From contig CAZPCY010000008.1 of NCBI GenBank assembly GCA_964585295.1, positions 6,295 to 70,294 on the forward strand: a DNA stretch of 64,000 nucleotides. Direction: 5' to 3'. The DNA comes from an uncultured Candidatus Poseidoniales archaeon (GTDB lineage Archaea; Thermoplasmatota; Poseidoniia; Poseidoniales; Thalassarchaeaceae). Positions 3,842-59,865 of this stretch are shown here, piece after piece. Made by a program: the position numbers and the translations under genes. Below the pieces are notes generated by a model that did no database searches, had not been told where the DNA came from, and saw only the letters and a list, made by a program, of their open reading frames with translations. Position 1 is the stretch's first letter. Each line of letters opens with the position of its first letter.

Positions 3842-6800
3842 ATGTCCGAGCCGGGCGAGGAGGACCGCTTCCTCGAGGAGCGCGCCTTCCGGATAGGAGG
3901 TAGCATCGATATCGGCGACCTAATCGATGATGCAAAGGATAGTCTCTCGGAAGGAGAGCGGGCGGAAGAAGAGAGAATTGCTGCGGCCGAAGCAGGAGAG
4001 GCTGCCGCGATTCGAGAAGAGGAAACGGAGGACGAGGACGAGGCGATTGGCCCCCTCTTCGATCCATTCTCCGAAGGGGATGAGGCCGGAGCGATAGCGA
4101 TTGATGGGACGGTGGTCTCTGCGCCCGAGCAGGACGCCGTCTCCAAGATGGCGGTAGAAGGAGAGCAACGTCTCCATTGGGGTCTCATGGCTGCGATGAT
4201 CACCGTCTATTCGCTCATCAGCCTCGTCGTCGGATTCGCTCTAACACCTCTCGTCGCTTTCTTCGGACTGGTCGCTCTAGCGGCGCTGGGATTCATCCTC
4301 AGCGAGCGTTGGGTACCGAGGGCATCGATGCACAACCTCGGTATCGTCTGGGTCATCATCGCGATGAAGATCCTTTACGGTCTCGCGATAGAATTGCACC
4401 GCTGGGATCTCTTTGGACTATTCCCACTCTCTACCGAGGCGCTGGGGGTCTCCCTTCTGTTGCTGGTGGGAGTCAACATCGCGTTCGCCTACCGACACGA
4501 CCACGACGCGATCGCCACTCAAGCGGTGCTGGTGCTGCTGGCGATCTCTTCGACGGCCGGCTCATTCTTCGGTGAGATGGGTGTTGCCGCGATGCTCCTC
4601 CTCGCCACGGTGCTCGTCCATTCGCTGGCACTGCATCGAAGTAGTGGAAATCTCGCCTCGCTCGGTATCGCAGCATCGAATCTCTGGATTGGGATGCACG
4701 CCGTGACTGGAGGCCTGACTCTCGGTTCGCTGACAATCTTGCCATTGCAGACTCCTCTCCTGCTGTTCATGTTGATGCTGGGCGTGAATGGTATCAATGC
4801 CACCATGGCCGCTCGTTTTGCTAGGGAAGAGAACTGGTTCTCGAAGGGACTCTCAATGGTCGGCCTCGGCCGCCCTGGTCTTTGGTCGGTGTCCGTCGGT
4901 CTCGGGATGGTCGGAGCTCTGATGGCTATCGCCGCCCATCGCGAAGACTCGGCTTATGCCCTAGGTATGGTAACCGCTCTGCTAGCGGCGTTCGCGGGCT
5001 CGTACCTGCATGTTCGGGGAGTCGATACGAAACGCATCCAGATTGTGTTGCTTCCTAGTTCCGCCGTGCTCACCTTCCTACTGGTTCTCTTCGATGCGGA
5101 GCTTCTCCCATCCTTGGGAATCATCGCTGGATACGAGTCGTTCACGATTGGCGCGGCCGCTGTCTCCGGCTGGCTGCTGCTGTCCAATCAGGAGAGCGTC
5201 ACCGATCGAGTGCTATGGATGGGATCGATCGCCATAGCAGCACTGCTCACCGTGTTGATACCGGCGCGCGCGCTGGATGCGGGGGGTGATGGTGGTCTAC
5301 TGCTGCTGGCGACTCTCTCCATATTGCACATCGGCACCGCGACCCTCGCCCTCAAACGCCACTCGCACTCACTAGCCGGAACCGCCGTAATCACTCCGTG
5401 GATATGGGTAATGGTGGTTGAGGGGGTCAGCGGCATCGTCCGCACCTTCACTACTCTGAATACCGGCGACACCGTCCATCTAGTAGCCCTCGATGGTAAT
5501 CTGCTGGGCGCCTATCTCGTACTCGCCTCGCTGATACAGGCTCCTTGCAATCTGGCGATGGGTGAGAAGGGAGTAAATCTCGCCGATCGTTTCCTAGGAA
5601 TAGCCGAGATTGCGGCGCGGTTGCGGGATTCCGGAATGATGCGCCTCTGGAACATCGGCTGGATCCTCGGCCTCGCTGTCTGGTTGGCACGAGGCGGTGC
5701 AGGCGACATGTCGGGGTGGGTCCTGATGGCCGGACTCGGCGTTCACGCTGCCGTTCACATCGCAGCCGATGTTAGCGGTCGACACCAGGACAATCCTAGG
5801 TTGCTGCTCGGTGCGCTAGGAGTCTCAATCGCCGTCGTCATGTGGCGGCATGGCATGGATGGAGTCTGGCTGATCGCCTTCGTCCTAGCAAGTGGTTCCC
5901 TTTGTTCCATCAGGCGCGATCCGGAGCGCGAAGCGCAGATGCAGATGCTATCGATGACGCTGCTGACGTTGCTGATACTTGTTTGGGGGAGCGCTCGAAC
6001 GATTCGCTCACCACTAGATACGAGCCCGATGATTAGCGATCAGTTGACCGGCTGGCTTGCCATCACGGTGGTCGCTGTGCAGTTGGCGATCTATCTACCT
6101 AGGGTATCGCGATATGAGGATCTTCTGAGACCAGCGATTAGCTCCATCGCGATGCTGGTTGCTACGATTGCAGCCGCTTGGAATGTCGGTGTGGATGCGT
6201 GGCAGCCGACTGCGGCAGGTGTGCTGCTGCTGGCCTGCGGCCTATGGCTCGCCGCCAACGGCGAGATCAGGAGCGAGTTGAAGGCGGTGGCCAAGCGGGA
6301 GTCGAGACTCGCTTCACTGGCCGAGAGTCAACGCGTCGCACAGGCGCTAGCCATCGGGTCGGTACCTAAGGCCACCCTAACACCTTCTCTTCCTGAATCG
6401 GTGGATGGTAATGGCACACCTTCGTCTCCATCGGATTACGATGGATCGCCTGACCGAACCTATCACTTCCCAGACGAAGCGACCGCCGAGCGCGCCATCT
6501 CATCCGACTTGACCGCCGCCGCTTTGGCGAGTTCGGCCCAAGCAGTCTCGATTGGAGACGTCGGTGCGATAGACCCGCGCATGGTCGAGTTGGTAGAGAA
6601 GCAGCGTCGTCGTCGTAAGCGATCTGGTTCCACCGGCGCCGATGATCTGCTGATTGGCGACATCCACCATCGACCAGTGGTCATACTAGCGTTCATCTTG
6701 ACGGGAATCCTAGGTGCGTCACTGCTCTCCTTCCTGAATGGGTCGTTTGGGCCAGGTCTGATTGCGCTGATTGGAATTTGGTCGGTCGCATTGATTGCGA

Positions 6801-7861
6801 TCTCCCGTTGGCGCGCTTCGGTGCACGATCTCAGGCTACCTGATGTTATGGGGATCGAGACGCCGTTCGCTGTCGCCTTGCTCGGAGTAGGGCTCGTTCA
6901 GGTCGCAGCCCATATGTCCTCGGGTGCATCGAAATGGGACCAATTGGACCTCCTCGCCTTGGTCGGCGTCACCACCATACTAGCTGTGATGTCCCTCGCC
7001 GGTCGCAGCGATTTGGCGATGCGCATCCCGTCCTCGCTTGAGTGGCTGGTGCTCGCCCTGCTCCTCCCGAGACTCCTCGGGGCACTCTTCGGAGAGGGCA
7101 ATCCTTTCCCGCTTTCCGTCGATCCGTTCGACGAATCAGGCGAACTCCTCGCATGGACGATTCCTCATCTCGTCCAAGAGGCGGTCCTGATTGTAGCCGT
7201 GCTGCTATGGGATTGGATCGAGGGGGTTCGCCGGTCAAAGGGGATGCCTGATCATCATGGGGCGAACGGAAGGGGGGGCTGGGCGTTCGCTATTGTATTG
7301 CTATCGATTGGACCGGCAGGCCTGTTGGCCGCCTCCTTCGCAATCAGGCGAGGATGGCATTGGGAGCAGCCCACGGCCGTGAGTATCGGCATCCTCGCGG
7401 GGGCCGTCACCCTGTTCGCCTTCGTCTCTTGGATAGATGCGCTCGCACCCTACGTCGGGTGGATACTGGTTCTGCTCGGCTGCGTCCTGCTCGCCGTCGT
7501 TGCAGGCACCGTGCCACCGTCGAGGGCTCGCTGGACCGGTAGCTTCGCGCTCGCTGCTCACATCCTGCTCCCCATCGGCGCGGCGATAACGACCGGTGGT
7601 CTGACCGTCTGGGTGCTGGTCGCTCTGTTCGCACTCTCGATGACCTCATGGTGCGTCGGCATCCTGCAACTGCGGAAGGGTCTCCGCTTCGTCGGTGCCT
7701 TCGATCTAGTATTCGCGCTCACACTCGCCCTGCTGACGATGCGGGCGGCCCTACTAGAGCCGACGACCGCCTTGATCGCCCTCGTCGCGCTTGCTATCGA
7801 GCTCGGAGTAGTGGTATGGCTCGGACAGCGGTATCAGGATGCGATGGCAGCATCTGAGTGA
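3842..7861 (+). CDS. Very large polytopic membrane protein of unknown function (1339 aa)
   Basis: Acidic N-terminus, then dozens of hydrophobic helices interrupted by one hydrophilic loop containing KQRRRRKR. Confidence 0.8.
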   Translation: MSEPGEEDRFLEERAFRIGGSIDIGDLIDDAKDSLSEGERAEEERIAAAEAGEAAAIREEETEDEDEAIGPLFDPFSEGDEAGAIAIDGTVVSAPEQDAVSKMAVEGEQRLHWGLMAAMITVYSLISLVVGFALTPLVAFFGLVALAALGFILSERWVPRASMHNLGIVWVIIAMKILYGLAIELHRWDLFGLFPLSTEALGVSLLLLVGVNIAFAYRHDHDAIATQAVLVLLAISSTAGSFFGEMGVAAMLLLATVLVHSLALHRSSGNLASLGIAASNLWIGMHAVTGGLTLGSLTILPLQTPLLLFMLMLGVNGINATMAARFAREENWFSKGLSMVGLGRPGLWSVSVGLGMVGALMAIAAHREDSAYALGMVTALLAAFAGSYLHVRGVDTKRIQIVLLPSSAVLTFLLVLFDAELLPSLGIIAGYESFTIGAAAVSGWLLLSNQESVTDRVLWMGSIAIAALLTVLIPARALDAGGDGGLLLLATLSILHIGTATLALKRHSHSLAGTAVITPWIWVMVVEGVSGIVRTFTTLNTGDTVHLVALDGNLLGAYLVLASLIQAPCNLAMGEKGVNLADRFLGIAEIAARLRDSGMMRLWNIGWILGLAVWLARGGAGDMSGWVLMAGLGVHAAVHIAADVSGRHQDNPRLLLGALGVSIAVVMWRHGMDGVWLIAFVLASGSLCSIRRDPEREAQMQMLSMTLLTLLILVWGSARTIRSPLDTSPMISDQLTGWLAITVVAVQLAIYLPRVSRYEDLLRPAISSIAMLVATIAAAWNVGVDAWQPTAAGVLLLACGLWLAANGEIRSELKAVAKRESRLASLAESQRVAQALAIGSVPKATLTPSLPESVDGNGTPSSPSDYDGSPDRTYHFPDEATAERAISSDLTAAALASSAQAVSIGDVGAIDPRMVELVEKQRRRRKRSGSTGADDLLIGDIHHRPVVILAFILTGILGASLLSFLNGSFGPGLIALIGIWSVALIAISRWRASVHDLRLPDVMGIETPFAVALLGVGLVQVAAHMSSGASKWDQLDLLALVGVTTILAVMSLAGRSDLAMRIPSSLEWLVLALLLPRLLGALFGEGNPFPLSVDPFDESGELLAWTIPHLVQEAVLIVAVLLWDWIEGVRRSKGMPDHHGANGRGGWAFAIVLLSIGPAGLLAASFAIRRGWHWEQPTAVSIGILAGAVTLFAFVSWIDALAPYVGWILVLLGCVLLAVVAGTVPPSRARWTGSFALAAHILLPIGAAITTGGLTVWVLVALFALSMTSWCVGILQLRKGLRFVGAFDLVFALTLALLTMRAALLEPTTALIALVALAIELGVVVWLGQRYQDAMAASE

Positions 7862-8673
7862 CCAACGACCATGTGCTCACTGATTCCATCTTGGCAGGTC
7901 ATCATCATCCTCGTTGCAGGTGGTTTGAAGGGGGCTGGTTTGTCTCCCGGGTCGTGCGACCCAGCAGTCCGTTCATCCTCCCATGGTCGGATGGTCGAGG
8001 TGGAACCCTAGGGCCGGTCGATTGGGTCAAGAGTCGTCCATTCACTACCTTCCACCTCATTATCTCCATGTCGCTCCTAGCCTGGCTCGGGTTCGGTTCG
8101 ACAACCTCCTGCGAAACCGAAGCTCAGCGACTAATCTGTGCTAATGCCATCTGGCCGAGCGATCTGGTCGAAGCACCGCATCGACTGTTCCTCTCCTACA
8201 TCACCGCACCTTGGTTTCACAACAGCATGGAGCACATCCTGCTGATTGTGGTTTGCCTCTTCCTGATATCCCAAACGGCTGAGGTTCGTCTTGGTACCAA
8301 GAGGACCGTCTTTCTATTCTTCACCGGTACCGCCGTCGTAGCCACCATCATCGCCATCATCCTCAACGTCGGAGCATCACTGCATGACTCTCCTTGGTTT
8401 AGCGGCGGCCTCGCCCGGAATTGGATGGGTGGATCGGTTGGTCTCTACTGCGCTATGGGTGCCCTCTTCGCTCAGACCCGCCGTCCGGAATTTGCTTTCC
8501 TCGCATATTTCGTGTTCGACGCCCTGAACCTCTTCGTTTACCACGGAGCCGCCAGCCAGACCATCTCCGCCCATGTACTCGCGGTAGCACTCGGCGGTGC
8601 GATAGGTTGGCGATGGCGGAACGAGGGAATGGAATGGGATCCGATTGCCAACTACACCTCCTCTCCAATCTAG
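7858..8673 (+). CDS. Rhomboid-family intramembrane serine protease
   Basis: TAPWFHNSMEHI, catalytic-Ser-like GGSVG and His in SAHVLAVALG; about 6 TM segments; overlaps the upstream stop (GTGA). Confidence 0.75.
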   Translation: MTNDHVLTDSILAGHHHPRCRWFEGGWFVSRVVRPSSPFILPWSDGRGGTLGPVDWVKSRPFTTFHLIISMSLLAWLGFGSTTSCETEAQRLICANAIWPSDLVEAPHRLFLSYITAPWFHNSMEHILLIVVCLFLISQTAEVRLGTKRTVFLFFTGTAVVATIIAIILNVGASLHDSPWFSGGLARNWMGGSVGLYCAMGALFAQTRRPEFAFLAYFVFDALNLFVYHGAASQTISAHVLAVALGGAIGWRWRNEGMEWDPIANYTSSPI

Positions 8674-19534: not shown

Positions 19535-22204
19535 TCAGGGAGACGGCCAATCGCTGCTATTCAGCAGGAAGGTCGCCTCTCTAGTCAACTCGTATCGATA
19601 TCGCAGACCTACCTTCTCGCGCTCCACCAGTCCGTACTTCTCCAGTGTTCTGAGATGGTGGCTGATTAGTTGCTGGCTCGCTTCCAAACGCTCAGCGAGT
19701 TCACGCTGGCTGAGGTTGATGTATTCGTTTCCGGTTTGATCGAGTAGGGTCAGGATCTTTCCCTGCAGCGAATTGGGGTCGGGTGTCAGGAGCGGCACCG
19801 GGAGGTCGTCTTCATCCATCTTCCTGACCGTGGCAGGATAGAACCGGACCAACCTACCATCCCGTCGCCGCCAGAGCTTCTCTTCTGCTTCCAGTACCTT
19901 CAGATGGTGTGCCAATTGGCCGTTACTCATGCTCAAAGCCCCGAGGAGAGCCCGGAAGTGAGCGCCAGGGTTGGCGACTAGGAACCCGATAATCCGCCCT
20001 CTCTGAAATTCACCATCGTAGTCTCGATTCCTCCGAACCATCCCGACTAGTGCGAGTCCGAGGTTCATCGCCGGCAGACGAATCCATTCGGTGTTGACGA
20101 TTGATACCAGCAGCATCGCAATCATCGAGGTCGTCACGACAATCATGACTGCGGGCGGAGCGACGGCCACGACCGTGGCGGCGATGTTCTCGTCGGTTGA
20201 GGCGGCTTCCTGGTTAGGACTGGTTGCTGCAGGTTCTGGGGCGGTCCACTCGTCGATGACTGACACGACTTTGAGTCCGGGAGACCATACCGCACATGCA
20301 TCACCGGCAACGAACGATGCGTCGGCCACTCGATACGCTCCCTGCAGACGTGGTGATGGTGACCAGCCGGTGACGGTGCTTGCCAGAAGTGCTCGCTCAT
20401 CACCCGCAACGGTTCGCAATAGCCAGCAGCCGCCCTGATCGGTTCGGACATGGATCCATTCGCCTTCTAACACGACCGGATTCGGTGCGTTGATGACCGG
20501 TTCATCGACCACTATGATTACTTGTTCTTCTTCCTCTTCGACGACCGGTTCCTGAGCAATCCCATCGTATGCGTGAATGAGCGCCGTAGTCAGGCTCGGA
20601 TGCGACTGCGTTCTCGCTTCGATTAGGTATGTAGAGGTGGGGAGAGCGACACCATCGATTGCGAATGCGTGCTCGAATGGGCCCAATAGCATCGACTCAC
20701 CGCTCAGCAGCGTCGTCGAATCGCCTGCAATCCCATCACAATCTTCCTCTGAAACGGTGGCTGATTCGCCATCGACGGTGGAGAGGTGGAAGGATATGCG
20801 ACAGTCGGATGGCCATTGAATCACGAGTGGCTCGGCATCGAGATGCAGGAGTCTCAAACCGAACAGCACGCTCTCGTTGTCGCCATCCGGGTCGATGACA
20901 TCTATTTCGACCACTTCGAAAAGGGTCTGTTCAAGAGACTGCGCCTCCAACCGACAGAGGCGTTCTGCGTCGCTGTCCTCAACTTCGAATTCGATAATCT
21001 CGTACAGGTCGATCCCAGGACTCCTGACTATCGCCAAATGGTCGCCGCCGGCCCATCCGCAGCCGTCGAAGCCGCTCGTCTCTAGCGTGATGCGGGCCAG
21101 CCTCAAGGATTCGTCCGGCTGAATCTTGTGCTCCATCAAAGCCGGCACGCAGTTGGTTGCGCCCTCTTCGTCGTACGGCAGGCCACCATCAGCTGAGACG
21201 ATGTGGAGTCTCACCCAGCAGTCGTCCTCAAAGGATGCGACTCGCGCGATGTCGTCGTCGTTGTGCAGATCGACGACTAGCGTAAGTTCCTCACCACTCG
21301 CCACAGCACTGTTTCCATTATCTCGGGCGACCGAGAGCCGAAGACCTTCAACTCGCTGATCGCTCTCCACTGCCTCGTGAATCCATTCCACGCTCCAAGC
21401 ATCGCCGGCGGCGCCAGCGGGCCAAGCCGATATGGTGTACGACCCATCAGCGAGCCCAAGGTCCGATGGGCTCCAGGTCATCCATCCGAGATCGATGGAC
21501 GCACCGGGACTTATTTTCTCGCCACCACCACATCCGATGTTCGAGATGCTAGCGATTGAGAGGCTCTGGACGATGCGACACGCATCGTCGAATGGAACCT
21601 CAATTTCCTCTGAACCGTGGTTCGAGAGCGTCGCTCGGGCGACAACCGGCTCGCCTGGTTCACTGGTCATCCGGCCACCGGGCATGGGTGGCATAAGCAA
21701 TTCAAAGGCGAGATCGTCCGGCATCGCAGTTTCTCGATGGTAGGTCACTTCGAAAGTCTCGGCCTCGATTTCGTCACCGGAATCAATCGCGATGAGGAGA
21801 TCGCCGGACGGCACCGTTGCCGTCCACGACCAATCGAGGGTTGAGATATGCTGCTCTCCTCCGGCCGGCACATCGATTGCACGCCATTGGCCGGCGCAGT
21901 TGCGCTCGTCGTCAAGGTCGTGGACAATCGCTCCGGTGGAATTAGTGATAATCATCGTGAATGGACATGATGGGTTGTGTTCGAATGCGTGGTCATTGTC
22001 TCCCTCATTGTAGACCGAGACGGATATCGTGAGGTCATTCGCATCGCTGTAGTGGAGGCCGTTGGCAGGAGCGGATATCGCGACGATTAGCGACAGTTCA
22101 GATTCGGAATGATTGCTAGCAGAGGCACCGGCAGCGCCACTCGCTGAGAGCATCAGCACCATGGCTAGGATTGCGAGGCCCGGTCCGCGCTGCCGCAGTG
22201 CCAT
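19535..22204 (-). CDS. Membrane-spanning regulator: signal peptide, four Cys-containing Ig/BsuPI-like repeats, TM helix, tandem winged-HTH
   Basis: Hydrophobic signal, repeated hxhxN...C...C...PG/E modules, TM (VMIVVTTSMIAMLLVSIV), then NPGAHFRALL..NGQLAHHL and SQRELAERLEASQQLISHHL. Start inferred. Confidence 0.75.
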   Translation of the reverse strand: MALRQRGPGLAILAMVLMLSASGAAGASASNHSESELSLIVAISAPANGLHYSDANDLTISVSVYNEGDNDHAFEHNPSCPFTMIITNSTGAIVHDLDDERNCAGQWRAIDVPAGGEQHISTLDWSWTATVPSGDLLIAIDSGDEIEAETFEVTYHRETAMPDDLAFELLMPPMPGGRMTSEPGEPVVARATLSNHGSEEIEVPFDDACRIVQSLSIASISNIGCGGGEKISPGASIDLGWMTWSPSDLGLADGSYTISAWPAGAAGDAWSVEWIHEAVESDQRVEGLRLSVARDNGNSAVASGEELTLVVDLHNDDDIARVASFEDDCWVRLHIVSADGGLPYDEEGATNCVPALMEHKIQPDESLRLARITLETSGFDGCGWAGGDHLAIVRSPGIDLYEIIEFEVEDSDAERLCRLEAQSLEQTLFEVVEIDVIDPDGDNESVLFGLRLLHLDAEPLVIQWPSDCRISFHLSTVDGESATVSEEDCDGIAGDSTTLLSGESMLLGPFEHAFAIDGVALPTSTYLIEARTQSHPSLTTALIHAYDGIAQEPVVEEEEEQVIIVVDEPVINAPNPVVLEGEWIHVRTDQGGCWLLRTVAGDERALLASTVTGWSPSPRLQGAYRVADASFVAGDACAVWSPGLKVVSVIDEWTAPEPAATSPNQEAASTDENIAATVVAVAPPAVMIVVTTSMIAMLLVSIVNTEWIRLPAMNLGLALVGMVRRNRDYDGEFQRGRIIGFLVANPGAHFRALLGALSMSNGQLAHHLKVLEAEEKLWRRRDGRLVRFYPATVRKMDEDDLPVPLLTPDPNSLQGKILTLLDQTGNEYINLSQRELAERLEASQQLISHHLRTLEKYGLVEREKVGLRYRYELTREATFLLNSSDWPSP

Positions 22205-22369
22205 GACCAGCGCTCGACCTCGACCCATATCAAACAGTCCCTTCAGGCCAGCATCCGAAGGATGCGGCCTGTGCCCGCGCCTCGCGCGAGCGAGAGATGT
22301 GGGCCAAGTCACCATCCGGCACCTCAACTGGTCGTCATCGCTATTCGATGTCTCATCCTCAGCCGCACC

Positions 22370-23213: not shown

Positions 23214-26200
23214 TCAGTCATCGAAGTCGCCCATGGTTGGGACGGAAGCGAGCGCCGCGGCCTCCTCCTGTTCTTTATGGACTTGCCATTGTGCCTTCTC
23301 GACCCATCCTAGTTCACGCGCCTTCTCGTAATCTCCTTGGGACGCGTAGTGTTCAGCCCAGAGCTGCCGCCGATCCTCCTCGTCGGCGAATGCGGCCTCT
23401 TGCTCGTCGAAGACACGCTTCTCGGAGATTAATCGCCGCTTCGCCATCTGCCTCGAAATCATCGCTACGAGGATCATCGACAACAGCAGCATGACTACGA
23501 GACCGATGGCGATTCCAGCGAACACCGCAACATCCCGCGTAGACAGCGCTTCGTCCTCCAATGATTGCTCGACCGCACAAGGCGTGCCGATCTCCCATAC
23601 CTCTGGATCCTTGGGGCAGGGATCGCTCTGGTCTGACATCCCATCACCGTCTTGGTCTGGACAGCCGAGGCGATCACGCCACGACTTACCGTGGTTCGAC
23701 TTACAGTCGTCGGGCTCAAATGCATCTCTAGTCGAGTTGTCGCCATAGCCATCGCCGTCGCTGTCCTTCCATTGCGTCGGCTGGTGCGGGAAAGCGTCGG
23801 ATGAGAATCCCTCGGGGTTGTCACCGTGACCATCGCCGTCGACATCCGACCATTGCGTATCGTCGTCAGGGAACGCGTCTCCGTTCTCAAGTCGCGCATC
23901 GAAGTAGGTGCCATTGGATCCGTTCACCTCCATGATCGTCATCGTGAATGAGTAGTTGTCGCCGATGAGGTCCCCGTCCTCATCCATCCACTGGGTACCA
24001 TCGTCGGGGAATGCATCGATTGAGTCGGCCCAACCATCGTGGTCTCCATCCCGGCATCCGTACACATTGCCCATGTACGATTCTCCCCAATCGTCGGGAC
24101 AGTCGTCCATCCAGGTTCCCGGCTGATCCGCATATGCGTCCCCATCGCGGTTGGTCTGGTTGAATGCGTCATCTGGATACTCATCTTGCGGGTCTGGGAC
24201 CCCATCACTGTCGCTATCCGGGCATCCTCTAGCCTCCGGGGACGTGACATCTCCCCAGTTGAGTGGGCAGACGTCCGGGTTGGTCGCATATTGCACGTAG
24301 ATGCCCGGCCAAGAGGCGTTGCGCCAGTCAGACCACGATTCATTGGCGTAATTGTCGCCATAGCCATCACCATCGCTGTCTTTCCACTGGCTCGGGTCGT
24401 CAGGGAACCAATCACCGTTCGGACCGATCGCCGAATCGCCGTATCCGTCACCGTCACGATCGGTGCATTGCGTTCCATCCTCGGGGAATAGGTCTGCGCC
24501 GTTGCCTGAGGCGTTGTCGCCGCATTGATCACCATCGCGATCGCTCCATTGCGTCGGATCGTTCGGAAATGCCTCACCGTTGTTAGCATAGCCGTCGCCG
24601 TCGTTGTCCGGGCAACCGAACCATTCGATCGTATCGTATTGCTCACTGGTTTCGTTCCAGACAATCTTCCATTCGCTGTCGCCGGCGCTCGCCACGCATC
24701 TGTCAGGAGTCACCCCACTCGAATTATCGCCGTAACTGTCGCCGTCCTGATCGTGCCATTGGCTCGGTTCGGTGGTGAAGGCATCGGCGTCACCATCCGG
24801 AGAGGCTGCACCGGAAGCATCGGGGTCGGACCAACCGTCACCATCAGAATCGGGACAGCCGAGTCGATCCCAAATCGACCTTCCAGCATTCAAGGGACAT
24901 CCATCAGAGCGGTCGGTGAACGGCTCGTCACCTATCCAGTCGCCGTCGGTATCGTTCCACTGGTTAGAATCTACGGGGAATATATCAACGGCGGCAATCT
25001 GACTGGGGTTCATGTCTTGGATGAGGATTCCCGGCCATTCGGTAGGTCGGACCCCGTAGCTAGACCCGTGGCTGGCGTCATTGTAGTTGTCCCCATAGCC
25101 GTCGAGGTCGTAGTCATTCCACTGGGTTGGGTTGGAGGGAAAGCGATCGACGGTGCCGATTGGATTGGGGTCTCGGGGGTCATCTGTGTTGTCGGGATGG
25201 CCGTCGGAATCAGCATCAGCCCACTGGTATCCATCGTTTGGGTAGAGATCATTGTCATCCGACCAGCCATCGCCATCGGAGTCGGGGCACCCGAAGCGAT
25301 CCTGAGTCGAGTATCCGGTAATGGCTGGACAGGCGTCAGGTAGAATTCCGCTCGGGTTGTCGCCGTATCCATCGCCGTCCTGATCTGCCCATTGGGTGCC
25401 ATCCTCAGGGAACGCATCGTCGGTGTTCGGCACCCCATCGCCATCGATGTCTGGATCCATCCGCCACCAAATAGCGCGTTCCGAGTAGCCGCTGTGAGCG
25501 CTGACGATCCACTGCCCATCAGGGGACCAATCGAGCCCCCGTGTGACCGTGCAGGAGTTTTGACTACCACTGTTCTGACATGGGGCTTGCAGCCTCTCAA
25601 TCTCGTTGCCGGTCTGGGTGTCATAGAGGATGATCTTTCCACCGTAGGTCTGGTACCAGTACCATCCTACAGCTAGGACGCGACCATCCGGGCTGAATTC
25701 GACCGATTCGCAAGAGGAGGTGCCAGTGTCGTCCCATACCTGACTACCTGTGGTCGCGTTGAAGACATGCACACTGTTGCCGCCGCTGCCCTGCGAATAA
25801 GCATCACAGGCGGCGATGTAATTTCCATCTGGGCTCCAGTCCATTGAGTAGATTCTGGGTGCGCTGTTACCTGTGTGTAGTGTAATGGTCGTCGTCGCAG
25901 TCCATGATCCTCCTACTGAGTAGGTGAATACCTGCCCACGGCCGCTGAAGGCGAGCCTGCGTCCATCCGGCGACCAGCCGACGCTCTCGTATTCGTCCGA
26001 GACGGTGCTCGGGTCGAACGAACGAAGTTCGGTTTCCGTCTCGACATCGATGACCACCACCTCACCAGTCACGCCGCTCTGGGTGCTGGCGCGGCCGACG
26101 ACATAGGCGACCATCGAACCGTTGGGGTTGAACTCGACATCGCCGGCATCGTCGTTGCCACCGGTGTCGACGTCATGGGTGAAAATGTCCGAGAGGTTGT

Positions 26201-26693
26201 TGGAGTGCATCACGTAGAGTTCGTCATCACCATCTCCTGTCGTCGCTGCGAGCATCGTACCGTCTCGACTCCAGTCGAGCGCCAGTACTTGGCTATCGGA
26301 CGATAGCTGCCTTGAGAGAACATTCACTTTGGTGGTGGCATTGTGAATCCGTACATGACCGGACTCTAGAGCGAATGCGACCCAATTGCCGTTTGGGCTG
26401 AATTCAGCATCCCTGACATCGTCGTTGCCGACCCAAGAGGTCGCGTTCTCAATGAAGCCGGAGGAATGGACGGTCACCCTGTCGGTCCAGTCTGAGATAC
26501 CATCGCCATCCGAGTCGGGACAACCCAATCGATCGACGCTGCTGTTGCCTTTGGCCCATGGGCATGCGTCGAGATTGTCATCGGTACCGTCACCGTCCTG
26601 ATCTAGTGCGGAGACGGTCGTCGAAGCGATTGGGAGGAGCATTAGGAGTGCCGCCAGCAGGATTGCTGGCCGGGGGGTACTGGTTCCTCTCAT
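23214..26693 (-). CDS. Cell-surface protein: signal peptide, WD40-like beta-propeller, long thrombospondin type-3 Ca-binding repeat stalk, C-terminal TM
   Basis: About 7 repeats of [FW]S[PR][DN]G; many D.DGDG.GDN / DAFP.D.TQW / GCPDSDGDG repeats; TM VAVFAGIAIGLVVMLLLSMILVAMI. Confidence 0.85.
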   Translation of the reverse strand: MRGTSTPRPAILLAALLMLLPIASTTVSALDQDGDGTDDNLDACPWAKGNSSVDRLGCPDSDGDGISDWTDRVTVHSSGFIENATSWVGNDDVRDAEFSPNGNWVAFALESGHVRIHNATTKVNVLSRQLSSDSQVLALDWSRDGTMLAATTGDGDDELYVMHSNNLSDIFTHDVDTGGNDDAGDVEFNPNGSMVAYVVGRASTQSGVTGEVVVIDVETETELRSFDPSTVSDEYESVGWSPDGRRLAFSGRGQVFTYSVGGSWTATTTITLHTGNSAPRIYSMDWSPDGNYIAACDAYSQGSGGNSVHVFNATTGSQVWDDTGTSSCESVEFSPDGRVLAVGWYWYQTYGGKIILYDTQTGNEIERLQAPCQNSGSQNSCTVTRGLDWSPDGQWIVSAHSGYSERAIWWRMDPDIDGDGVPNTDDAFPEDGTQWADQDGDGYGDNPSGILPDACPAITGYSTQDRFGCPDSDGDGWSDDNDLYPNDGYQWADADSDGHPDNTDDPRDPNPIGTVDRFPSNPTQWNDYDLDGYGDNYNDASHGSSYGVRPTEWPGILIQDMNPSQIAAVDIFPVDSNQWNDTDGDWIGDEPFTDRSDGCPLNAGRSIWDRLGCPDSDGDGWSDPDASGAASPDGDADAFTTEPSQWHDQDGDSYGDNSSGVTPDRCVASAGDSEWKIVWNETSEQYDTIEWFGCPDNDGDGYANNGEAFPNDPTQWSDRDGDQCGDNASGNGADLFPEDGTQCTDRDGDGYGDSAIGPNGDWFPDDPSQWKDSDGDGYGDNYANESWSDWRNASWPGIYVQYATNPDVCPLNWGDVTSPEARGCPDSDSDGVPDPQDEYPDDAFNQTNRDGDAYADQPGTWMDDCPDDWGESYMGNVYGCRDGDHDGWADSIDAFPDDGTQWMDEDGDLIGDNYSFTMTIMEVNGSNGTYFDARLENGDAFPDDDTQWSDVDGDGHGDNPEGFSSDAFPHQPTQWKDSDGDGYGDNSTRDAFEPDDCKSNHGKSWRDRLGCPDQDGDGMSDQSDPCPKDPEVWEIGTPCAVEQSLEDEALSTRDVAVFAGIAIGLVVMLLLSMILVAMISRQMAKRRLISEKRVFDEQEAAFADEEDRRQLWAEHYASQGDYEKARELGWVEKAQWQVHKEQEEAAALASVPTMGDFDD

Positions 26694-26908
26694 CAGAATC
26701 CCGCGTAGCATTGCTGGAAAAGGCCTTGCGGTCCCCCTGCATCACGCGCGCGAGGCGCCTGCACACTCCAAATCACCTGTTCGTTGGCTCCGTGAACGAG
26801 GTGTTGGAACCCTACTCACGATGGGCTGTTTTCCATCCAGTTGAGGGTAGCTTGCGCAAAGGTCGGGGTGCCGAACCCTTCAATGGAAGCGACCCCGGAC
26901 CTATCCAC

Positions 26909-28495
26909 ATGGTCGCACCAATCGACCGGGTCCATGTCCCGGTCGAAGACCGAATCATGTTGCACCTGCATGAGCAGGACCATCAGTCCGATCTCTACAT
27001 GGTCGATGCTTCAGTCACCAGACCCGGAATCGCAGAGGCTTGTGCTCTACACCCTCCCAACGTGAGTCGTTCGATGCGGACCCTGATACGTAAGGGGCAT
27101 GTGATTGGGCACACCCGCTCCGTCCGCGGCGAGAGTCGACGACAGAAGACCTGGCAGTTGACCGACGAGGGAAGAGAGGCTTTCAAATCCCGTCTAGAGC
27201 GGTTGCGATCGGCCAAGGTACTGCTAAGGGATCCGGAGGGAGAATTGATCACCGTGCCCGCTGGTGAGGCTGCAGATCGTCTCGACGCGCGTCTCAGCCT
27301 ACTGCAGATTCTCATGCACTCGCAGCACGAGGGCGTCCTCACCTACGGCGACATCCGGTTCGGTGCCATCGAACGCGCCGGCGACGATGGCGACCCAGCT
27401 CCCGGATCTCTCTCCCTTCTCGCCGGTGCCCACTCCACGTATCATGTCCGGCCACCGAGCACCCGAACCGTGCACGGTCGCGCAAGCGAGCGAGCCTCCA
27501 TCGAAGAGTGGTACAATGCCAATGTGCCGACCCTAGTAATCACCGGAATCGCCGGCACCGGCAAGACAACCCTCGTCTCTGACTGGCTCAATGCGAGGAT
27601 CGATGCACAGCCATCACTCCGAGTGATGTACTATCCCTGCCAGCCTTGGGATTCACCGCTTGGCATAGCTACCAGTCTTTTGCATCGCCTCGGCATCGAG
27701 TCGAAGGGCAAGGACTCTTGGGATCCGCACGGTTTGTTGTCCGCTCTGCCATTGAAGCCCGGCGCACCTTTCGATGTTGACCTCTTCCGACGCAGGCTGA
27801 CCGCCTACCTGACCGATCCGATGTCGCTGCGAGAGCGCGTGTTCGAGGATCATGAGGAGGCGAGTGACCAACCGCCGTACATCCTGCTGGTTTTGGATGA
27901 CGTCCATCACATCGGTGAAGAGGCGAGCCATCTGCTAGGGGCACTCCTACAAGTCGCCGAGGTTTCTCCTCTGCGGCTGCTGCTGGTATCGAGAATGACC
28001 CTCGGATTCTACGATCGACGCGATGTCCACACGCGCAGCAGAGTCGAGGAGATGTCGCTCGCCGGTCTCTCCGTCGAGGAAATCTCCGACTGGTTGGATT
28101 CCTTCGATGCACCTTCACCACCACCTGCCGACGAGGTGCACGCGGCTACGGGCGGTCATCCACTTGCCTTGGAACTCCTCGAACTCTACGGCCGCGTAAT
28201 CCACGATGACTGGCTTCGGTTCCTCGACGAGGAAATCCTCGCGGTCCTTCCCGAGGATCTTCGCGAGATCCTCGCCACTCTGGCAGTCGCGGAACGACCG
28301 ATTCCATGGTCGATGCTAGCCGAGGCGAGCGGCGTCGAGGGAACACCGCCTGCCGCTCTGATAGAGCGCGGTCTTCTGATCGAGATGGATGATGGGCTAT
28401 GGCTCCATGAGGCGATTAAGGAGCGGCTGCTGCGTGAGGTCGGACAAGTGAGTGACGAGCGCCGGGAGAGGCTCGACGCGGCGACCGATGCTTGA
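26909..28495 (+). CDS. Winged-HTH + STAND-class P-loop NTPase lacking a C-terminal sensor
   Basis: N-terminal wHTH (TRPGIAEAC..NVSRSMRTL...WQLTDEG); Walker A GIAGTGKTT, Walker B LLVLDDVH, LLVSR, GGHPLAL, LHEAI. Start inferred at 26909. Confidence 0.8.
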   Translation: MVAPIDRVHVPVEDRIMLHLHEQDHQSDLYMVDASVTRPGIAEACALHPPNVSRSMRTLIRKGHVIGHTRSVRGESRRQKTWQLTDEGREAFKSRLERLRSAKVLLRDPEGELITVPAGEAADRLDARLSLLQILMHSQHEGVLTYGDIRFGAIERAGDDGDPAPGSLSLLAGAHSTYHVRPPSTRTVHGRASERASIEEWYNANVPTLVITGIAGTGKTTLVSDWLNARIDAQPSLRVMYYPCQPWDSPLGIATSLLHRLGIESKGKDSWDPHGLLSALPLKPGAPFDVDLFRRRLTAYLTDPMSLRERVFEDHEEASDQPPYILLVLDDVHHIGEEASHLLGALLQVAEVSPLRLLLVSRMTLGFYDRRDVHTRSRVEEMSLAGLSVEEISDWLDSFDAPSPPPADEVHAATGGHPLALELLELYGRVIHDDWLRFLDEEILAVLPEDLREILATLAVAERPIPWSMLAEASGVEGTPPAALIERGLLIEMDDGLWLHEAIKERLLREVGQVSDERRERLDAATDA

Positions 28496-49061: not shown

Positions 49062-50585
49062 TCAGCCTCTGCTCGGTGGCCCGCTGGGTGGACCCGTGGG
49101 TGGACCCGTGGGTGGACCGCGCGGCGATCCCTTCGGTCCGGGAGGACCCGATGGCGGACCCGCGGGCCCGGACGGTGGTCCCGGTGGCTCAGCCGGACCG
49201 GTGGTCGGCGGCCCAGGGGGTCCCGATGGCGGGGGCGGCGGCTCTGGTGCTGCTTCCATTGGATTTGAGGGAGGTCCGGACGGTGGTCCCGGTGACTCAG
49301 CCGGACCGGCGGTCGGCGGCCCAGAGGGTCCCGATGGCGGGGAGGGTGGCTCTGGTGCTGCTTCCATTGGATACGAGGGAGGTCCGGATGGTGGCCCCGA
49401 TGGTGGTCCAGCCGGTGGACCGGACGGCTCTGATTTCCCACCCGGTGGTCCGGATGGAGGACCCGATGGCGGTCCTGCCGCTGGACCTGACGGAGACTCG
49501 GATGGTTCCGGTCCCTTCTCCGTTGTTCTAGGTGGTGTACCAGATGGGGGTCCCAAAGGTGCCACTGCCGCCCTGTCAGGTTGTTCGGGGATTTCGTTCG
49601 GCGGCCCGGATGGTATAGGCGGAGGCCCGCTCGGAGGTCCAACCGTTGGTGTGGAAGGAGGCCCGCTTAGAGGACCAGTTGGAACTGTTGGAGGGACGTT
49701 AGGCATCACTGGACTGGGTGGCGGAGCCGCAGGCACGATCTCTGGCACCGTCAATGGATGTGGTGGTGCCGCTGGAGGGCCAGCCATCACCGTGTCCATC
49801 TCAGCCGGTGGTGCGGATGGAGGGCCTGTGGCCATTCCAGTTGGTGGCATCGCCGGTGGGAAGGCTGGGGGTATGGTTGGTGGATTCGCAGGCACCATGC
49901 CGAGATCGGCCGGTGAAGGCATTCCACCCATGCCGACCACTGGTCCCGCAGTGGGAGTCGCCGCCGGCAACGCGGGTGCTGCCACCACAGCCGCAGCCGG
50001 AGCGGGAGAGCCCGCGGCCGAGAAAGCGGCGGCTATCGGATCGTTGCTGAGCGAACTCACCGGTAAATTCGAGGTATCCGTCATCTCGCCGAAGCCCGCC
50101 AACGCGGAGCCAAAGGCTGACGCCAGTGCATCCCCATCATCGCTCGCTGCCTGCCTCATCATGGTTGAGGCCCCGGGCGTCCCTAGGACAGCAGGCGCAG
50201 CGCCTCGATTCTCCTGGTCGTTTGGCGTGGGGGCCAACTCGTTCCTATCGGAATCGGACATCCGCATGCCGTCGGGGAACGGACCGAGATCGGCACGGTG
50301 CTCCCCGAAGCTCGCCCATAGGATCCACGCTCCCGATGAAGGCGGCATGAACCAACTCGCGTAGCCGACGCCGCCGCCAGCGACTTCGCGGACGTTTTCG
50401 TAGACGGTCACAACCGCACCGCTGGTCCGGATTCCCAACGAGATTCCTCGCTGAGGCAGCCGCCCGTGGTTGCTGACCTCAGCAGTGACCCTGATCGCAT
50501 CTCTGTCGTCATCGTCGATGTCGTCGACGACCGCGTGCAGGCGAACGGTCAAGTCGCCCAGCGCGATACTCCTCTCCCCTATCAC
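49062..50585 (-). CDS. Protein with N-terminal beta-rich domain and very long Pro/Gly-rich tail
   Basis: About 110 globular residues, then Ala/Pro-rich and GPPS/GPPT repeats; collinear with the neighbouring minus-strand genes. Confidence 0.75.
   Translation of the reverse strand: MIGERSIALGDLTVRLHAVVDDIDDDDRDAIRVTAEVSNHGRLPQRGISLGIRTSGAVVTVYENVREVAGGGVGYASWFMPPSSGAWILWASFGEHRADLGPFPDGMRMSDSDRNELAPTPNDQENRGAAPAVLGTPGASTMMRQAASDDGDALASAFGSALAGFGEMTDTSNLPVSSLSNDPIAAAFSAAGSPAPAAAVVAAPALPAATPTAGPVVGMGGMPSPADLGMVPANPPTIPPAFPPAMPPTGMATGPPSAPPAEMDTVMAGPPAAPPHPLTVPEIVPAAPPPSPVMPNVPPTVPTGPLSGPPSTPTVGPPSGPPPIPSGPPNEIPEQPDRAAVAPLGPPSGTPPRTTEKGPEPSESPSGPAAGPPSGPPSGPPGGKSEPSGPPAGPPSGPPSGPPSYPMEAAPEPPSPPSGPSGPPTAGPAESPGPPSGPPSNPMEAAPEPPPPPSGPPGPPTTGPAEPPGPPSGPAGPPSGPPGPKGSPRGPPTGPPTGPPSGPPSRG
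49171..49386. repeat. 108-bp (36-aa) imperfect tandem duplication within Pro-rich gene
   Basis: gacggtggtcccggtg... recurs at 49171 and 49279; a 12-bp gggtggacccgt unit also repeats ~3x near 49086-49118. Confidence 0.85.
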
Positions 50586-56526: not shown

Positions 56527-59500
56527 ATGAGCAGCCGCTCCGCACTGCCCCTGATATTGACCGCCATGTTCCTTTTCGCCTCTGCGCTGGCCCTCGTAGG
56601 GCCAGTCGAGGAGACCGTCGAGGAGCGCATCGCGCTGAACGCTGAGCCTGCAAATTATGGCGCACCAAGCCCTGGCCACACCGTTTTCATGCAGTACATA
56701 TCGTCTGACAATTGCGTTTACTGTTACAATGCCGGTGGCGGTTCTGAGTCTGCACATAACCTGAAGCAATCCAATCCCGATGAATTCGTGTACATCACTT
56801 ACTCGTCTCTTGATTTTGGCTCGACCAATGATGCAAGATCGGGCAATGTAGCACCCATTTGGGCGATGAACCACTTGGGTGAAACTGGTGGTGCTCCGAC
56901 TGCATATTTGGGTGATTCGGACCCCGCGGCCAGCGGAAGTGATGGCCAAGGTACGAGATACGATTCCACCTTTTCAGCCGGGGGAAATATGCACGCTTCG
57001 GCGGCTGATTACGCCATAGCCGTTCAGCAATCCGTGAATTCAACTGATCCGGCCGATGTAGATATCATGATTCAAGCAGCATATGTAGGAACTGGAACTC
57101 CACCTGCATCGACCAAGCTCTACGCGGCCGTGACTGAGGAAAAGTGTGGCTACACCTACAATGGCGGCAATCCGGGATACGCCCACAATTGCTGGCGTGC
57201 TTGGCTTCTGAATGGTAACTCGTATGCAACGACCAGTGGTACTACGGGTGGTGGTACCGGATTCATCACTATGAATCTACAGAATGGTCCTCACACAGAG
57301 ATGTGGACCATCCCCGGCAACATCGTGCGTGCCCAAGGTGGTAACTCAGCTGGAATCGACAACATGCTCACCATTGGTGCCATCTTCAGCACTTGGAGCA
57401 CCACAGCGCACAACCACGATGTCTATGCCGCAGGGGATAGTTCGATGCAACCGCTTATCGATGTCGGTATCGACTTCGTCACCGTTGCCAATCAGGATGG
57501 TTCCGCGGGTTTCGTCTCCGGAGACACAGTAGATCTCTCCGTAACTGTCCGTAATCGTGGCGCTGAAGCCTACAACGATGGCGGTACTATCGGTCTCTAC
57601 TACTTGCAAGGCAACCAGGAGAATCTAATCGACACCACCTCTCTCAATTCCTTGACGAAAAATGGCGCTAGCGACACACAAACCTTCCAAACAACCTTTG
57701 ACACTACTTCAATCACCACAGTATCGCATGGGCAGACTGCGTTCCGTGCTCGCCTGACCAGTTTGACCGGTGACGGGAACGCGATGAACAACTTCGCTCA
57801 GGAGTATATCTCACACGATATGCCACCGGGCGCAACTCTGCCAACCGCAGTAGGTGAGGACACCGTCATCACCCGCCAACCAAACGACGTAAATCTGAGC
57901 TTTGAGTTGAAGCCGAGTATCAACGACGCGGTCGACGATGTCAGCACGATGACAGGGTCGCTCGAAGTCAAGGACCTGATCACCGGAGCGTGGAGCGACG
58001 CTTGGGTTACAGGAGGCGATGAAGTGTTCGGCCAGGGAGAATCGGCACACCTGAAGTTCACCGTGCATCCACCCAACGATGCGAAGGCGGGGGAGTACGA
58101 CGTCCGAACGATGTGGACCGATTCCCGAGGCCAGTCATCCGCTTGGATCGAGTACGCGGACGCGTTCTCTCTCATGAACGGCCTACCGGCAGTAGTCGAC
58201 GGAGTGGTGCCGACCGTCAAGGTCGACACGGATGAGCGGATTTCCTTGGTTGGGATTGTCTCCGACCCAGAGACCCCGCTGAACCAGTTGCAGATCACTT
58301 CCACCGCCAGCGAGTTCACGGGTTGGTATCCAGCCGACATGGAGATTGGCGTCCGATTTGCCTCAGACGACCAGACCAAGGATGCGTCTGGCAACTACAT
58401 GCAGCAGAACCTGCAGATTACCATGGACGACGGCACCGACAGCAACACGGGGACGATTAAGATCAATCTGATTGAGAATGGCGCCCCACGGTGGTCGCCG
58501 GTGCAAGCAATCACGATGGAGGAGGGTGGTAGCACGACCATCGCTCTCGCCCAATACCTCTCAGACACCGATGACTCGGGCCAGACTGCTCCGGTCTCGG
58601 CGCTCACCATCCAAGTAATCAGCAACGATGCTGACGGACAGGCTCTCATCACCACCACTGTCAACGGACAGACCCTCGTATTGCAGACGATTGATGACGA
58701 TGCGCACGGCTCTACCTTGCTCACCCTGCGGGCGCATGACGGCGTTCGCCATTCGGACACCGAGATGATGGTGCATGTGACTAACGTCAACGACGCGCCC
58801 CGCCTAGACTCAACGCCTTTGGAGAACCTCCGAGTGAAGGCTGGTGAGGATGCCTGGATCGACATGTCCGGCAGGATCACCGATGTGGACACCGACGCGA
58901 CCAATCTCTGGATTGATGTCTCCAGCGATGTCTCCGGTGGCGCCAAGTGGTTCCCAGCCAACGAGACTCTTCGGCTCCGCTTCGATGTCGAGGGGATGAA
59001 GACGTTCAGCTTCTCCCTCGATGATAACGAAGGCGGCGTCGCTAACATCCCGGTAACGGTCGAGGTCGTCGATGCCCTACCTCTGACTTGGGAACAGGAC
59101 GGTGTGGGCGATCTCAGTATCGCCACCGACACCCTCGATACCGGCTCCACGCCTAGAGTCACGGTTCTGAACGTCGGCCCGACGACATTGACCGAGATTG
59201 AGGTGAATTGGCAGTTGTGCAACTCCATCACTAAACAGTGCACCGACGCTGGTCGCGAGGAGCAATTCGGCGCCTTCGATGTAGTCCCCCAGTCCGGTCT
59301 CGGGCTACGATTAGCAGACTACCTCAAGGTCACCGTCACCGGGGTCGACTCGGATGGATTCGACCGGAAGAGCACCGAGATGGTGTTCAACGCGACCGAG
59401 GCCGCCGATGATGTCATCGGAGATGGTTCGACCACGGACGGAACCGGTGATGACGGGACCTCGACACAGACCGAGGAAGGAATGTCCCTGTCGAGCCCGG

Positions 59501-59865
59501 CCGCAATCGGTGGAATCGTCGTCTTCATCCTGCTGGCACTGACCCTCGCCCTGACATTCGTGATGCGCGGTGGCAAGCGCGACGAACTAATCCTCAGTGC
59601 CTACGCGCAGCAACTGGTGGAGCAGGGCTACACAGCCGAAGTCGCCCAAGCGCACGCTGCGATGTACGAGCAGCATGCCTCCCAGAGCGAAACCGCAGCG
59701 CCGATGGCGCCAACAGCCGCTACGCCAACCACCGTCGCCGACTACACTCACCTGCCCGCTGGCGGTGATTACCGAACTGGATACCAAGGTGAGACGATCT
59801 ACGTGGAGCCGAGCGGCGTCGCTTGGACGATGCAGGCGGACAACTCGTTCATCCGTAACCAGTAA
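56527..59865 (+). CDS. Large membrane-anchored surface protein (Omp28-like CxxC N-domain, CARDB/Ig/cadherin-like repeats, TM, cytoplasmic tail)
   Basis: Signal peptide; SSDNCVYC; LYAAVTE; SVTVRNRG..DGNAMNN; VTNVNDAP; TM AAIGGIVVFILLALTLALTFVM. Confidence 0.75.
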   Translation: MSSRSALPLILTAMFLFASALALVGPVEETVEERIALNAEPANYGAPSPGHTVFMQYISSDNCVYCYNAGGGSESAHNLKQSNPDEFVYITYSSLDFGSTNDARSGNVAPIWAMNHLGETGGAPTAYLGDSDPAASGSDGQGTRYDSTFSAGGNMHASAADYAIAVQQSVNSTDPADVDIMIQAAYVGTGTPPASTKLYAAVTEEKCGYTYNGGNPGYAHNCWRAWLLNGNSYATTSGTTGGGTGFITMNLQNGPHTEMWTIPGNIVRAQGGNSAGIDNMLTIGAIFSTWSTTAHNHDVYAAGDSSMQPLIDVGIDFVTVANQDGSAGFVSGDTVDLSVTVRNRGAEAYNDGGTIGLYYLQGNQENLIDTTSLNSLTKNGASDTQTFQTTFDTTSITTVSHGQTAFRARLTSLTGDGNAMNNFAQEYISHDMPPGATLPTAVGEDTVITRQPNDVNLSFELKPSINDAVDDVSTMTGSLEVKDLITGAWSDAWVTGGDEVFGQGESAHLKFTVHPPNDAKAGEYDVRTMWTDSRGQSSAWIEYADAFSLMNGLPAVVDGVVPTVKVDTDERISLVGIVSDPETPLNQLQITSTASEFTGWYPADMEIGVRFASDDQTKDASGNYMQQNLQITMDDGTDSNTGTIKINLIENGAPRWSPVQAITMEEGGSTTIALAQYLSDTDDSGQTAPVSALTIQVISNDADGQALITTTVNGQTLVLQTIDDDAHGSTLLTLRAHDGVRHSDTEMMVHVTNVNDAPRLDSTPLENLRVKAGEDAWIDMSGRITDVDTDATNLWIDVSSDVSGGAKWFPANETLRLRFDVEGMKTFSFSLDDNEGGVANIPVTVEVVDALPLTWEQDGVGDLSIATDTLDTGSTPRVTVLNVGPTTLTEIEVNWQLCNSITKQCTDAGREEQFGAFDVVPQSGLGLRLADYLKVTVTGVDSDGFDRKSTEMVFNATEAADDVIGDGSTTDGTGDDGTSTQTEEGMSLSSPAAIGGIVVFILLALTLALTFVMRGGKRDELILSAYAQQLVEQGYTAEVAQAHAAMYEQHASQSETAAPMAPTAATPTTVADYTHLPAGGDYRTGYQGETIYVEPSGVAWTMQADNSFIRNQ

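Follow-up and report, generated by a model that had tools for sequence, protein, structure and literature searches.

What kind of protein is encoded by the gene at positions 19535-22204 (minus strand) of the window, the whole 64,000-nucleotide stretch of a Candidatus Poseidoniales contig analysed here, and could it link the cell surface directly to transcription? The frame translates from the window DNA into 889 amino acids (aa) and a stop codon, without an internal stop, and base composition is even across the gene region. The Marine Group II archaea, abundant in surface seawater, still lack a cultured representative, which lends interest to any route by which they might sense their surroundings. 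The translation and the alignment of relatives point to a type I membrane protein, and we consider it probable that it is a single-pass, one-component transmembrane transcription regulator, which works from the membrane and is predicted to relay a signal to genes.

HMMER, run exhaustively against 1.84 billion representatives, gave 2055 matches at E<=0.001, 43 of them at E<=1e-30, while a word-indexed homologue search returned the window protein alone. About thirty of the HMMER matches are full-length (820-920 aa); most of the others share only residues ~675-880. The family alignment on which the following results are based comprised the window protein and 25 full-length relatives, with the fragments P0019, P0024, P0026 and P0029 left out. 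Among 41 genomes of Poseidoniales, 39 contained some match and 28 a full-length copy, usually a single one; the 13 that lack a full-length copy come from seven small-genome genera. Furthermore, 299 of 330 pattern stretches from public genomes encoded a relative (the best 80 stretches were kept), on contigs titled Thalassarchaeaceae, Poseidoniaceae, Poseidoniales or Marine Group II. The gene, conserved well above what chance would give, is a near single-copy orthologue in Poseidoniales, and as such a conserved candidate for direct surface-to-DNA signalling in Marine Group II. Literature searches found no paper on the family, although the supplementary tables of PMC10269533 may list relatives. 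One contig stands apart by its title: locus L035, assigned to a Blastopirellula sp. metagenome-assembled genome, carries at the contig end a family fragment with 44% identity. Mis-binning into this planctomycete bin is probably a better explanation than transfer.

Hydropathy analysis (Kyte-Doolittle, 19-residue window) showed the same pattern in the window protein and each of its 25 aligned homologues: two hydrophobic peaks and no more, at residues 9-27 and 685-703. The first forms the core of a putative signal peptide (residues 1-29, 22118-22204; this and every other element of the gene lie on the minus strand), which has a basic n-region and an Ala-x-Ala-type end, after which it is presumably cleaved; AlphaFold2 (AF2) placed a helix at residues 7-24. 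The second peak (hydropathy 2.55), about 200 aa from the C-terminus, agrees with an AF2 helix at residues 682-704 (20093-20161), the predicted transmembrane (TM) helix, which follows an acidic stalk of low confidence (residues 659-681). Net charge is -5 before this helix. Behind it, alignment, hydropathy and AF2 delimit a juxtamembrane hydrophobic helix (residues 706-722, 20039-20089) with invariant E706 and R709 and a mean identity to the window protein of 41%, followed by a basic RRNR. We read it as an interfacial or packing helix and not as a second span, because its 17 residues are too few to span the membrane, RRNR stands behind it, the ectodomain must lie on the outer side and the tail begins with basic residues. 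The cysteines are distributed accordingly with respect to the membrane: exactly 12 lie on the outer, N-terminal side in 26/26 family members, and 0-3 inside. The signal peptide, these cysteines, the single TM helix and the flanking charges all point to the two ends lying on opposite sides of the membrane, as a first-pass annotation made from the sequence had supposed, and the uniform pattern in all 26 members extends its proposed architecture across genomes.

Then, we delimited the parts of the ectodomain. AF2, run on the 26-row alignment (mean predicted local distance difference test (pLDDT) 77.9, predicted TM-score 0.50), folded it into four beta-sandwiches and a small barrel, with low-confidence linkers at residues 551-573 and 659-687. 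Module 1 (residues 37-170, 21695-22096), a BsuPI-like beta-sandwich recognised by alignment, hhalign, profile search and AF2, contains C80/C103 and the conserved motifs NPSC and C-x-x-Q-x-R. The following three were delimited by alignment, hhalign and AF2: module 2 (residues 187-294, 21323-21646) with C209/C225, module 3 (residues 300-409, 20978-21307) with C329/C352 and C382, and module 4 (residues 427-546, 20567-20926) with C468/C489. C382 probably pairs with C417 in the next helix (residues 412-421). The membrane-proximal domain (residues 577-654, 20243-20476) is, by alignment, AF2 and fold searches, a five-stranded barrel resembling the oligonucleotide/oligosaccharide-binding (OB) fold, with invariant G, W, C593, G and C637. 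All six pairs (C80/C103, C209/C225, C329/C352, C382/C417, C468/C489 and C593/C637) vary little or not at all among the members. Homology between the four modules is clear: hhalign comparisons between sub-alignments of the family alignment gave 85-99% for all six module pairs, against at most 1.6% for the controls (the beta domain and the winged helices).

The cytoplasmic part consists of two winged helix-turn-helix (wHTH) domains. The first (residues 729-795, 19820-20020; Pfam, profile search, AF2) matched the Pfam model HTH_HVO_0163_N at residues 734-797 with E 4e-13 and 49.7 bits (cut-off 31). The second (residues 813-882, 19559-19768; Pfam, NCBIfam, profile search, AF2) is of the ArsR/MarR type, with the recognition helix SQQLISHHLRTL; the HTH_24, HTH_5 and MarR models matched at residues 813-877, all above the Pfam cut-offs, and the NCBIfam ArsR/SmtB model NF033788 gave 56.8 bits against a cut-off of 55. 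HTH_HVO_0163_N was found in 26/26 members, and so were HTH_5/HTH_24/MarR. The two domains are homologous to each other (hhalign 92%) and are joined by a Pro-rich linker seen in the alignment (residues 798-812, 19769-19813). In the recognition helix, residues S843, Q844, Q845, S848, H850 and L851 are invariant (an S-Q-Q-x-x-S-x-H-L core). The profile of the tail matched the ArsR-family structure 2oqg (E 2.8e-5, over the recognition helix and the wing), HlyU and the DNA-binding protein 5duk. VIA-align placed it on a tandem winged-helix chain of the RNA polymerase III pre-initiation complex, 8iue_P (Z 10.5), with a root mean square deviation (rmsd) of 12.5 Å, so the mutual orientation of the winged helices differs. 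On the whole, the Pfam, NCBIfam and profile matches argue for a putative DNA-binding unit. The 179 cytoplasmic residues of the window protein contain no Cys, and with them no thiolates for metal sensing of the ArsR/SmtB kind. A complex prediction for two copies of the C-terminal 226 residues scored 0.13 against a mark of 0.42, which is no evidence either way. The overall composition proposed by the first-pass annotation, with signal peptide, four paired-Cys modules, small beta domain, TM helix and two wHTHs in one chain, is thus borne out by hydropathy, alignment, Pfam and AF2, and the motifs it quoted (NPSCPF, NCAGQ and GGCWLLRT) are present in the translation.

Two further observations favour a regulator. 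The first is a sensor-like pattern of evolution: over the 25 relatives, mean identity to the window protein is only 18-28% in the ectodomain, compared with 65% and 67% in winged helices 1 and 2 and 75% in the linker between them, the most conserved stretch of the protein. Purifying selection is strongest on the tail. The second is the modularity of the tail, since the same TM helix and tandem wHTH are found behind many different ectodomains: the tail profile, at E<=1e-10, had a match in 115 of 151 sampled genomes of the phylum.

On this basis, the regulator could work as follows. The N-terminal 650 residues would be exported, held by six disulfides, and would rise from the cell surface, four BsuPI-like immunoglobulin-like (Ig-like) modules and the OB-like barrel forming a stalk, with one helix crossing the membrane. 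At the inner face, the hydrophobic helix would be followed by the two ArsR-type winged helices, which, joined by their invariant Pro-rich linker, would make up the DNA-binding unit; a chain with two wHTHs could replace the usual ArsR homodimer. A macromolecular or particulate ligand would bind the fast-evolving ectodomain, the best candidate site being the conserved disulfide-stapled loop of the distal module 1. Binding would affect how the TM and juxtamembrane helices pack or cluster, and this would in turn change how the tail engages membrane-near promoters, without release. DNA binding, sensing, signal transfer and action without release are all predicted steps. The tail is well suited to DNA affinity purification sequencing (DAP-seq) or systematic evolution of ligands by exponential enrichment (SELEX), because it is small, soluble and Cys-free; a regulon obtained in this way would be the first for an uncultured lineage.

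The first-pass annotation had described the repeats as BsuPI-like Ig folds. The window protein itself matches Pfam BsuPI (PF12690) with 18.0 bits and E 0.0028, below the gathering cut-off of 22.9, and its first module taken alone has no BsuPI match at E<=0.01. The relationship emerges at the level of the family: with a threshold of E<=0.1 the BsuPI model recognises 19 of the 26 homologues (best 7e-13), with one of E<=0.01 it recognises 41 of 69 first modules, and a profile built from these 69 modules had as its top match in the PDB the B. subtilis protein 3isy (E 3.7e-4, 104 positions). With the full model, VIA-align matched the modules to Spo0M (Z 9.8, rmsd 2.6, 105 residues), RbmA (Z 8.9) and transglutaminase/factor XIII barrels (Z 8.4). 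Foldseek with the whole model gave generic tandem-Ig matches, with TM-scores near 0.1. RbmA and the transglutaminase and factor XIII barrels are structural neighbours named for the B. subtilis protein IPI in the sections of PMC3901451 drawn on here. Because of the Pfam, 3isy and VIA-align matches, we assign the modules, at family level, to an Ig-like variant of the BsuPI kind with an extra disulfide; the part of the earlier description that concerned the window protein alone did not reach the Pfam threshold. By profile similarity, IPI (PF12690, 3isy) has the same Ig-like variant, and secreted multi-domain homologues of IPI have been described (PMC3901451, in the same sections). The window protein differs from it in having four tandem copies fused to a membrane anchor and a putative DNA-binding tail, and in the conserved disulfide of each module, which IPI lacks at the aligned positions.

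The likeness to BsuPI also raises the possibility that the modules bind, or are cut by, extracellular subtilisin-type peptidases, and that intramembrane cleavage then frees the tandem wHTH for gene regulation. The first-pass annotation had proposed protease sensing of this sort, with a rhomboid encoded in the window as the possible releasing enzyme. In the 3isy profile alignment, the second conserved Cys and C-x-x-Q-x-R align with the IPI stretch that was proposed as an inhibitory wedge (PMC3901451), the genome has 13 Peptidase_S8 matches, an M50 site-2 protease homologue and a rhomboid, and the two low-confidence linkers (551-573 and 659-687) could be shedding sites. We nevertheless consider this scenario quite unlikely. 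According to the same source, as far as the sections drawn on here extend, the BsuPI family was withdrawn from MEROPS and IPI cannot be called an inhibitor with certainty, so that the inhibitory role from which protease sensing was derived is itself unsettled, and the window protein stays under the Pfam BsuPI cut-off. In addition, the number of subtilisins does not follow the gene: there are 8-11 S8 matches in the 13 relatives without it and 9-13 in the 28 that carry it, and tracking of the gene by subtilisin counts was rejected as all 41 have 8-13. As for the releasing enzyme, rhomboids shed ectodomains rather than free cytoplasmic tails, and a site-2 protease would be more plausible. The rhomboid gene of the window (7858-8673) lies 11 kb and at least eight genes away, which speaks against the proposed release by its product, the M50 homologue is on another contig (C1), and no linkage of the gene to a rhomboid or site-2 protease gene was found in its own genome. 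RsiV/RsiW anti-sigma factors, SREBP and Notch are membrane-tethered factors released by proteolysis; they resemble the window protein in being single-pass with a regulatory cytoplasmic part, for which release is possible in principle, but no linked dedicated protease gene was found for the window protein. As a separate observation, several of the thirteen Peptidase_S8 matches in the 2.06 Mb genome lie in open frames of 1600-2270 aa.

Folded alone from 75 sequences, the barrel was again five-stranded and OB-like, with pLDDT 90.6; it had no Pfam family, no meaningful sequence relative in the PDB and no Foldseek match at E<=0.001. The best VIA-align matches were NigD-like/DUF1344 N-domains (Z 8.0), the NlpE C-domain (Z 6.7) and potempin A (Z 6.2), besides OB folds of the SSB/PriB type at about Z 6. 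These scores (Z at most 8.0) are too weak for naming a family and may reflect a common fold only. DUF5818 (PF19135) matched 2 of the 75 barrels weakly (E about 0.03), and the barrel reached an Atlas feature score of 0.77 against a cluster in which 33% of members carry DUF5818, to be taken as a lead only.

The tail is found far beyond the core family. Of 94 representatives of at least 250 aa outside it, 83 show a hydrophobic peak that lies 150-260 aa before the C-terminus, and 59 of these 83 also have an N-terminal one. A domain scan covering the longer outside representatives (51 out of 120, with a length of some 450 aa and upwards) found the HTH_HVO_0163_N tail in 51/51 (one below the Pfam cut-off), fused to ectodomains with PKD, CARDB, NPCBM_assoc, FG-GAP, beta-helix/NosD, TSP_3, DUF11, Big_7 and He_PIG domains. 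In their sources such proteins are named "winged helix-turn-helix transcriptional regulator" (a Methanomassiliicoccales metagenome-assembled genome) or "predicted transcriptional regulator". As a module, the tail occurs up to 19 times in a single genome of related archaea, as a rule behind a membrane helix and mostly behind adhesin-like domains, and this wider tandem-wHTH surface-protein module is a more notable lead than the window gene.

The window itself contains what may be a split version of the fused design. A gene for a 1112-aa secreted, C-terminally anchored surface protein (56527-59865, plus strand) stands directly before one for a 238-aa tandem-wHTH protein (59979-60695, plus strand), which has a juxtamembrane-like stretch and no ectodomain. 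The latter is 35% identical to the window protein over residues 653-875, and its N-terminal stretch is weakly hydrophobic (maximum 1.44). The two genes are adjacent in 6 of the 7 related loci with enough flank. The tail behind the TM helix could be the output module of a large archaeal signalling system, in which adhesin-like arrays, either fused to it or encoded by an adjacent gene (as at 56527-60695), signal directly to promoters that the cell has met particles, polymers, enzymes or other cells. In Marine Group II, the disulfide-stapled BsuPI-like loops would then bait extracellular peptidases and the cell would tune its protein-degrading surface machinery to what is outside, possibly through cleavage and release of the tail. 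This extended picture is speculative, and we give it a small chance of being correct as a whole.

The element upstream of the gene (22227-22262, minus strand) is the GC-rich palindrome GCATCCTTCGGATGC (22239-22262 including flanks), followed directly by TTTGATAT, 26 nt from the ATG at 22204 and a possible TATA box provided that translation starts there. An alternative ATG at 22228, eight codons upstream and common to the closest relative (L031), could be the true start of the gene; both candidates fall in the signal peptide. Across loci L031-L110, the last 80 nt before the start keep their palindromic character with lineage-specific letters. These lineage-specific GC-rich palindromes lie between the TATA-like element of the gene and a divergent beta-lactamase-fold gene. 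They may represent an operator, a hairpin or an insulator, and we do not claim them as an operator, because they vary while the recognition helices barely vary. The palindrome pattern of the window occurs at 5 genome sites against 0 for a reversed control, with an estimated ~1.5 expected by chance. One of the sites precedes a possible start of the M50 protease gene by ~110 nt. An operator shared with this gene, which would have favoured release of the tail by a site-2 protease, was dropped as a probable chance match, since 3 of the 4 sister-genome sites were fetched and none is near the M50 gene.

Several points weigh against a regulator that signals from the membrane. The palindromes beside the putative TATA box differ by lineage and the recognition helices are nearly invariant, and the palindrome search in the own and the sister genome found no DNA target of the tail. 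Winged helices can also serve protein-protein contacts. The TM and juxtamembrane region, through which the signal would pass, has pLDDT 35-62 in the AF2 model. Furthermore, the ectodomains of the wider family are adhesin-like or S-layer-like, unlike classical ligand-binding sensor domains, and would fit a structural surface protein too. The protein could then be mainly structural or adhesive, an Ig stalk in the envelope or an adhesin whose winged helices tether it to the nucleoid or to some partner in the cytoplasm and carry no signal. The whole-model fold matches are of this kind (tandem Ig arrays of S-layer proteins, adhesins, RbmA and macroglobulin domains), relatives carry adhesin-type domains, and the gene lies downstream of one for a giant surface protein both in its own locus and in the paralogous one. 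A mere anchor, however, would hardly explain why the tail is the most conserved part and has canonical ArsR recognition helices. The gene is also about single-copy and, expression aside, the abundance signals of an envelope protein were not seen. We therefore regard a purely structural role as unlikely.

The regulator we favour belongs to a known class. ToxR, CadC and TcpP of bacteria begin with a cytoplasmic OmpR-type wHTH and end in a periplasmic domain, and ArnR and ArnR1 have C-terminal TM segments. Like the window protein, the former three are single-pass proteins in which a winged helix of the DNA-binding kind shares the chain with an extracytoplasmic domain, and they are counted among the transmembrane transcription regulators (TTRs; Demey et al. 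2023, PMC10269533). In the parts of that survey on which we rely, TTRs are proteins with a predicted DNA-binding domain and at least one predicted TM region, and the window protein has both (the TM region by hydropathy and AF2). The same parts report 1,384 archaeal TTRs in 367 of 404 species, state that 56% of all TTRs are single-pass and that hardly any predicted TTR has been validated, and describe TTRs as acting from the membrane in bacteria and archaea. The suggestion in the first-pass annotation of an undescribed kind of system must accordingly be withdrawn, given that the class has already been surveyed in archaea. What differs here is the polarity, the tandem ArsR-type tail and the ectodomain of Ig modules: as opposed to the bacterial TTRs, the ectodomain comes first and the C-terminal tandem ArsR-type wHTH last. 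ArnR and ArnR1 of Sulfolobus acidocaldarius are the studied membrane-bound transcription factors of archaea and have an N-terminal HTH, according to the part of PMC13286277 used here; judged by their descriptions, they are set apart from the window protein by the lack of a large ectodomain and of a tandem ArsR-type module.

Individually, the winged helices match those of soluble regulators, namely the HVO_0163-type regulators of Haloferax and the ArsR/SmtB proteins 2oqg and HlyU. ArsR/SmtB proteins are small, soluble homodimers that often sense metals, whereas the window protein has two wHTHs in one chain behind a TM helix and a Cys-free tail. HVO_0163, after which the model for the first wHTH is named, is an ArsR-type protein that rises under hypochlorite stress, as stated in the portion of PMC10294847 considered.

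Finally, we compared the gene neighbourhood across 16 loci carrying the gene. The leucyl-tRNA synthetase (LeuRS) gene adjoins it in 15, and in all 16 it is adjoined by the gene for a 1165-aa surface protein (23214-26711, minus strand) that has a signal peptide, a WD40-type propeller, many thrombospondin-type-3-like (TSP3) acidic repeats, a C-terminal TM helix and a ~75-aa acidic cytoplasmic tail. A divergent metallo-beta-lactamase (MBL) gene lies between the two in 12 of the 16. A gene for a winged-helix and AAA/STAND-type ATPase (26558-28495, plus strand; Pfam AAA_16 and HTH_34) is near in 14 of the 16, adjoining the WD40/TSP3 gene; the other two loci end at the contig end. In five genomes without the gene, LeuRS abuts the beta-lactamase-fold gene and the AAA-wHTH orthologue is kept (5/5), while a WD40/TSP3 orthologue was not found in any of the five.

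This distribution could indicate a co-component system, in which the protein senses the 1165-aa surface protein or regulates its gene, with the pair at 56527-60695 as the split version. The constant adjacency, the joint absence from five genomes that kept the MBL and AAA-wHTH genes, the adjacency of the second surface protein and short tandem-wHTH protein, and the bacterial TTRs with known partner membrane proteins (PMC10269533, in the parts already referred to) are all consistent with it. Adjacency alone says little, though, because the whole region, even its housekeeping genes, keeps the same gene order, and the five genomes form one clade on the LeuRS tree (support 100/99; L024 was left out as too short), so that a single loss event is enough. 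The co-loss of the two genes was accordingly dropped as evidence for a link, and we hold such a partnership to be very unlikely.

Two further features of the window lie outside this neighbourhood. A 1339-aa polytopic membrane protein without a Pfam match is encoded at 3842-7861 (plus strand), and its stop overlaps the start of the rhomboid-family gene, also on the plus strand. At 49062-50585 (minus strand), where G+C is 65% and both strands carry long open frames, there is an ORF (open reading frame) very rich in Pro, Gly and Ser that repeats PPSGP-type units.

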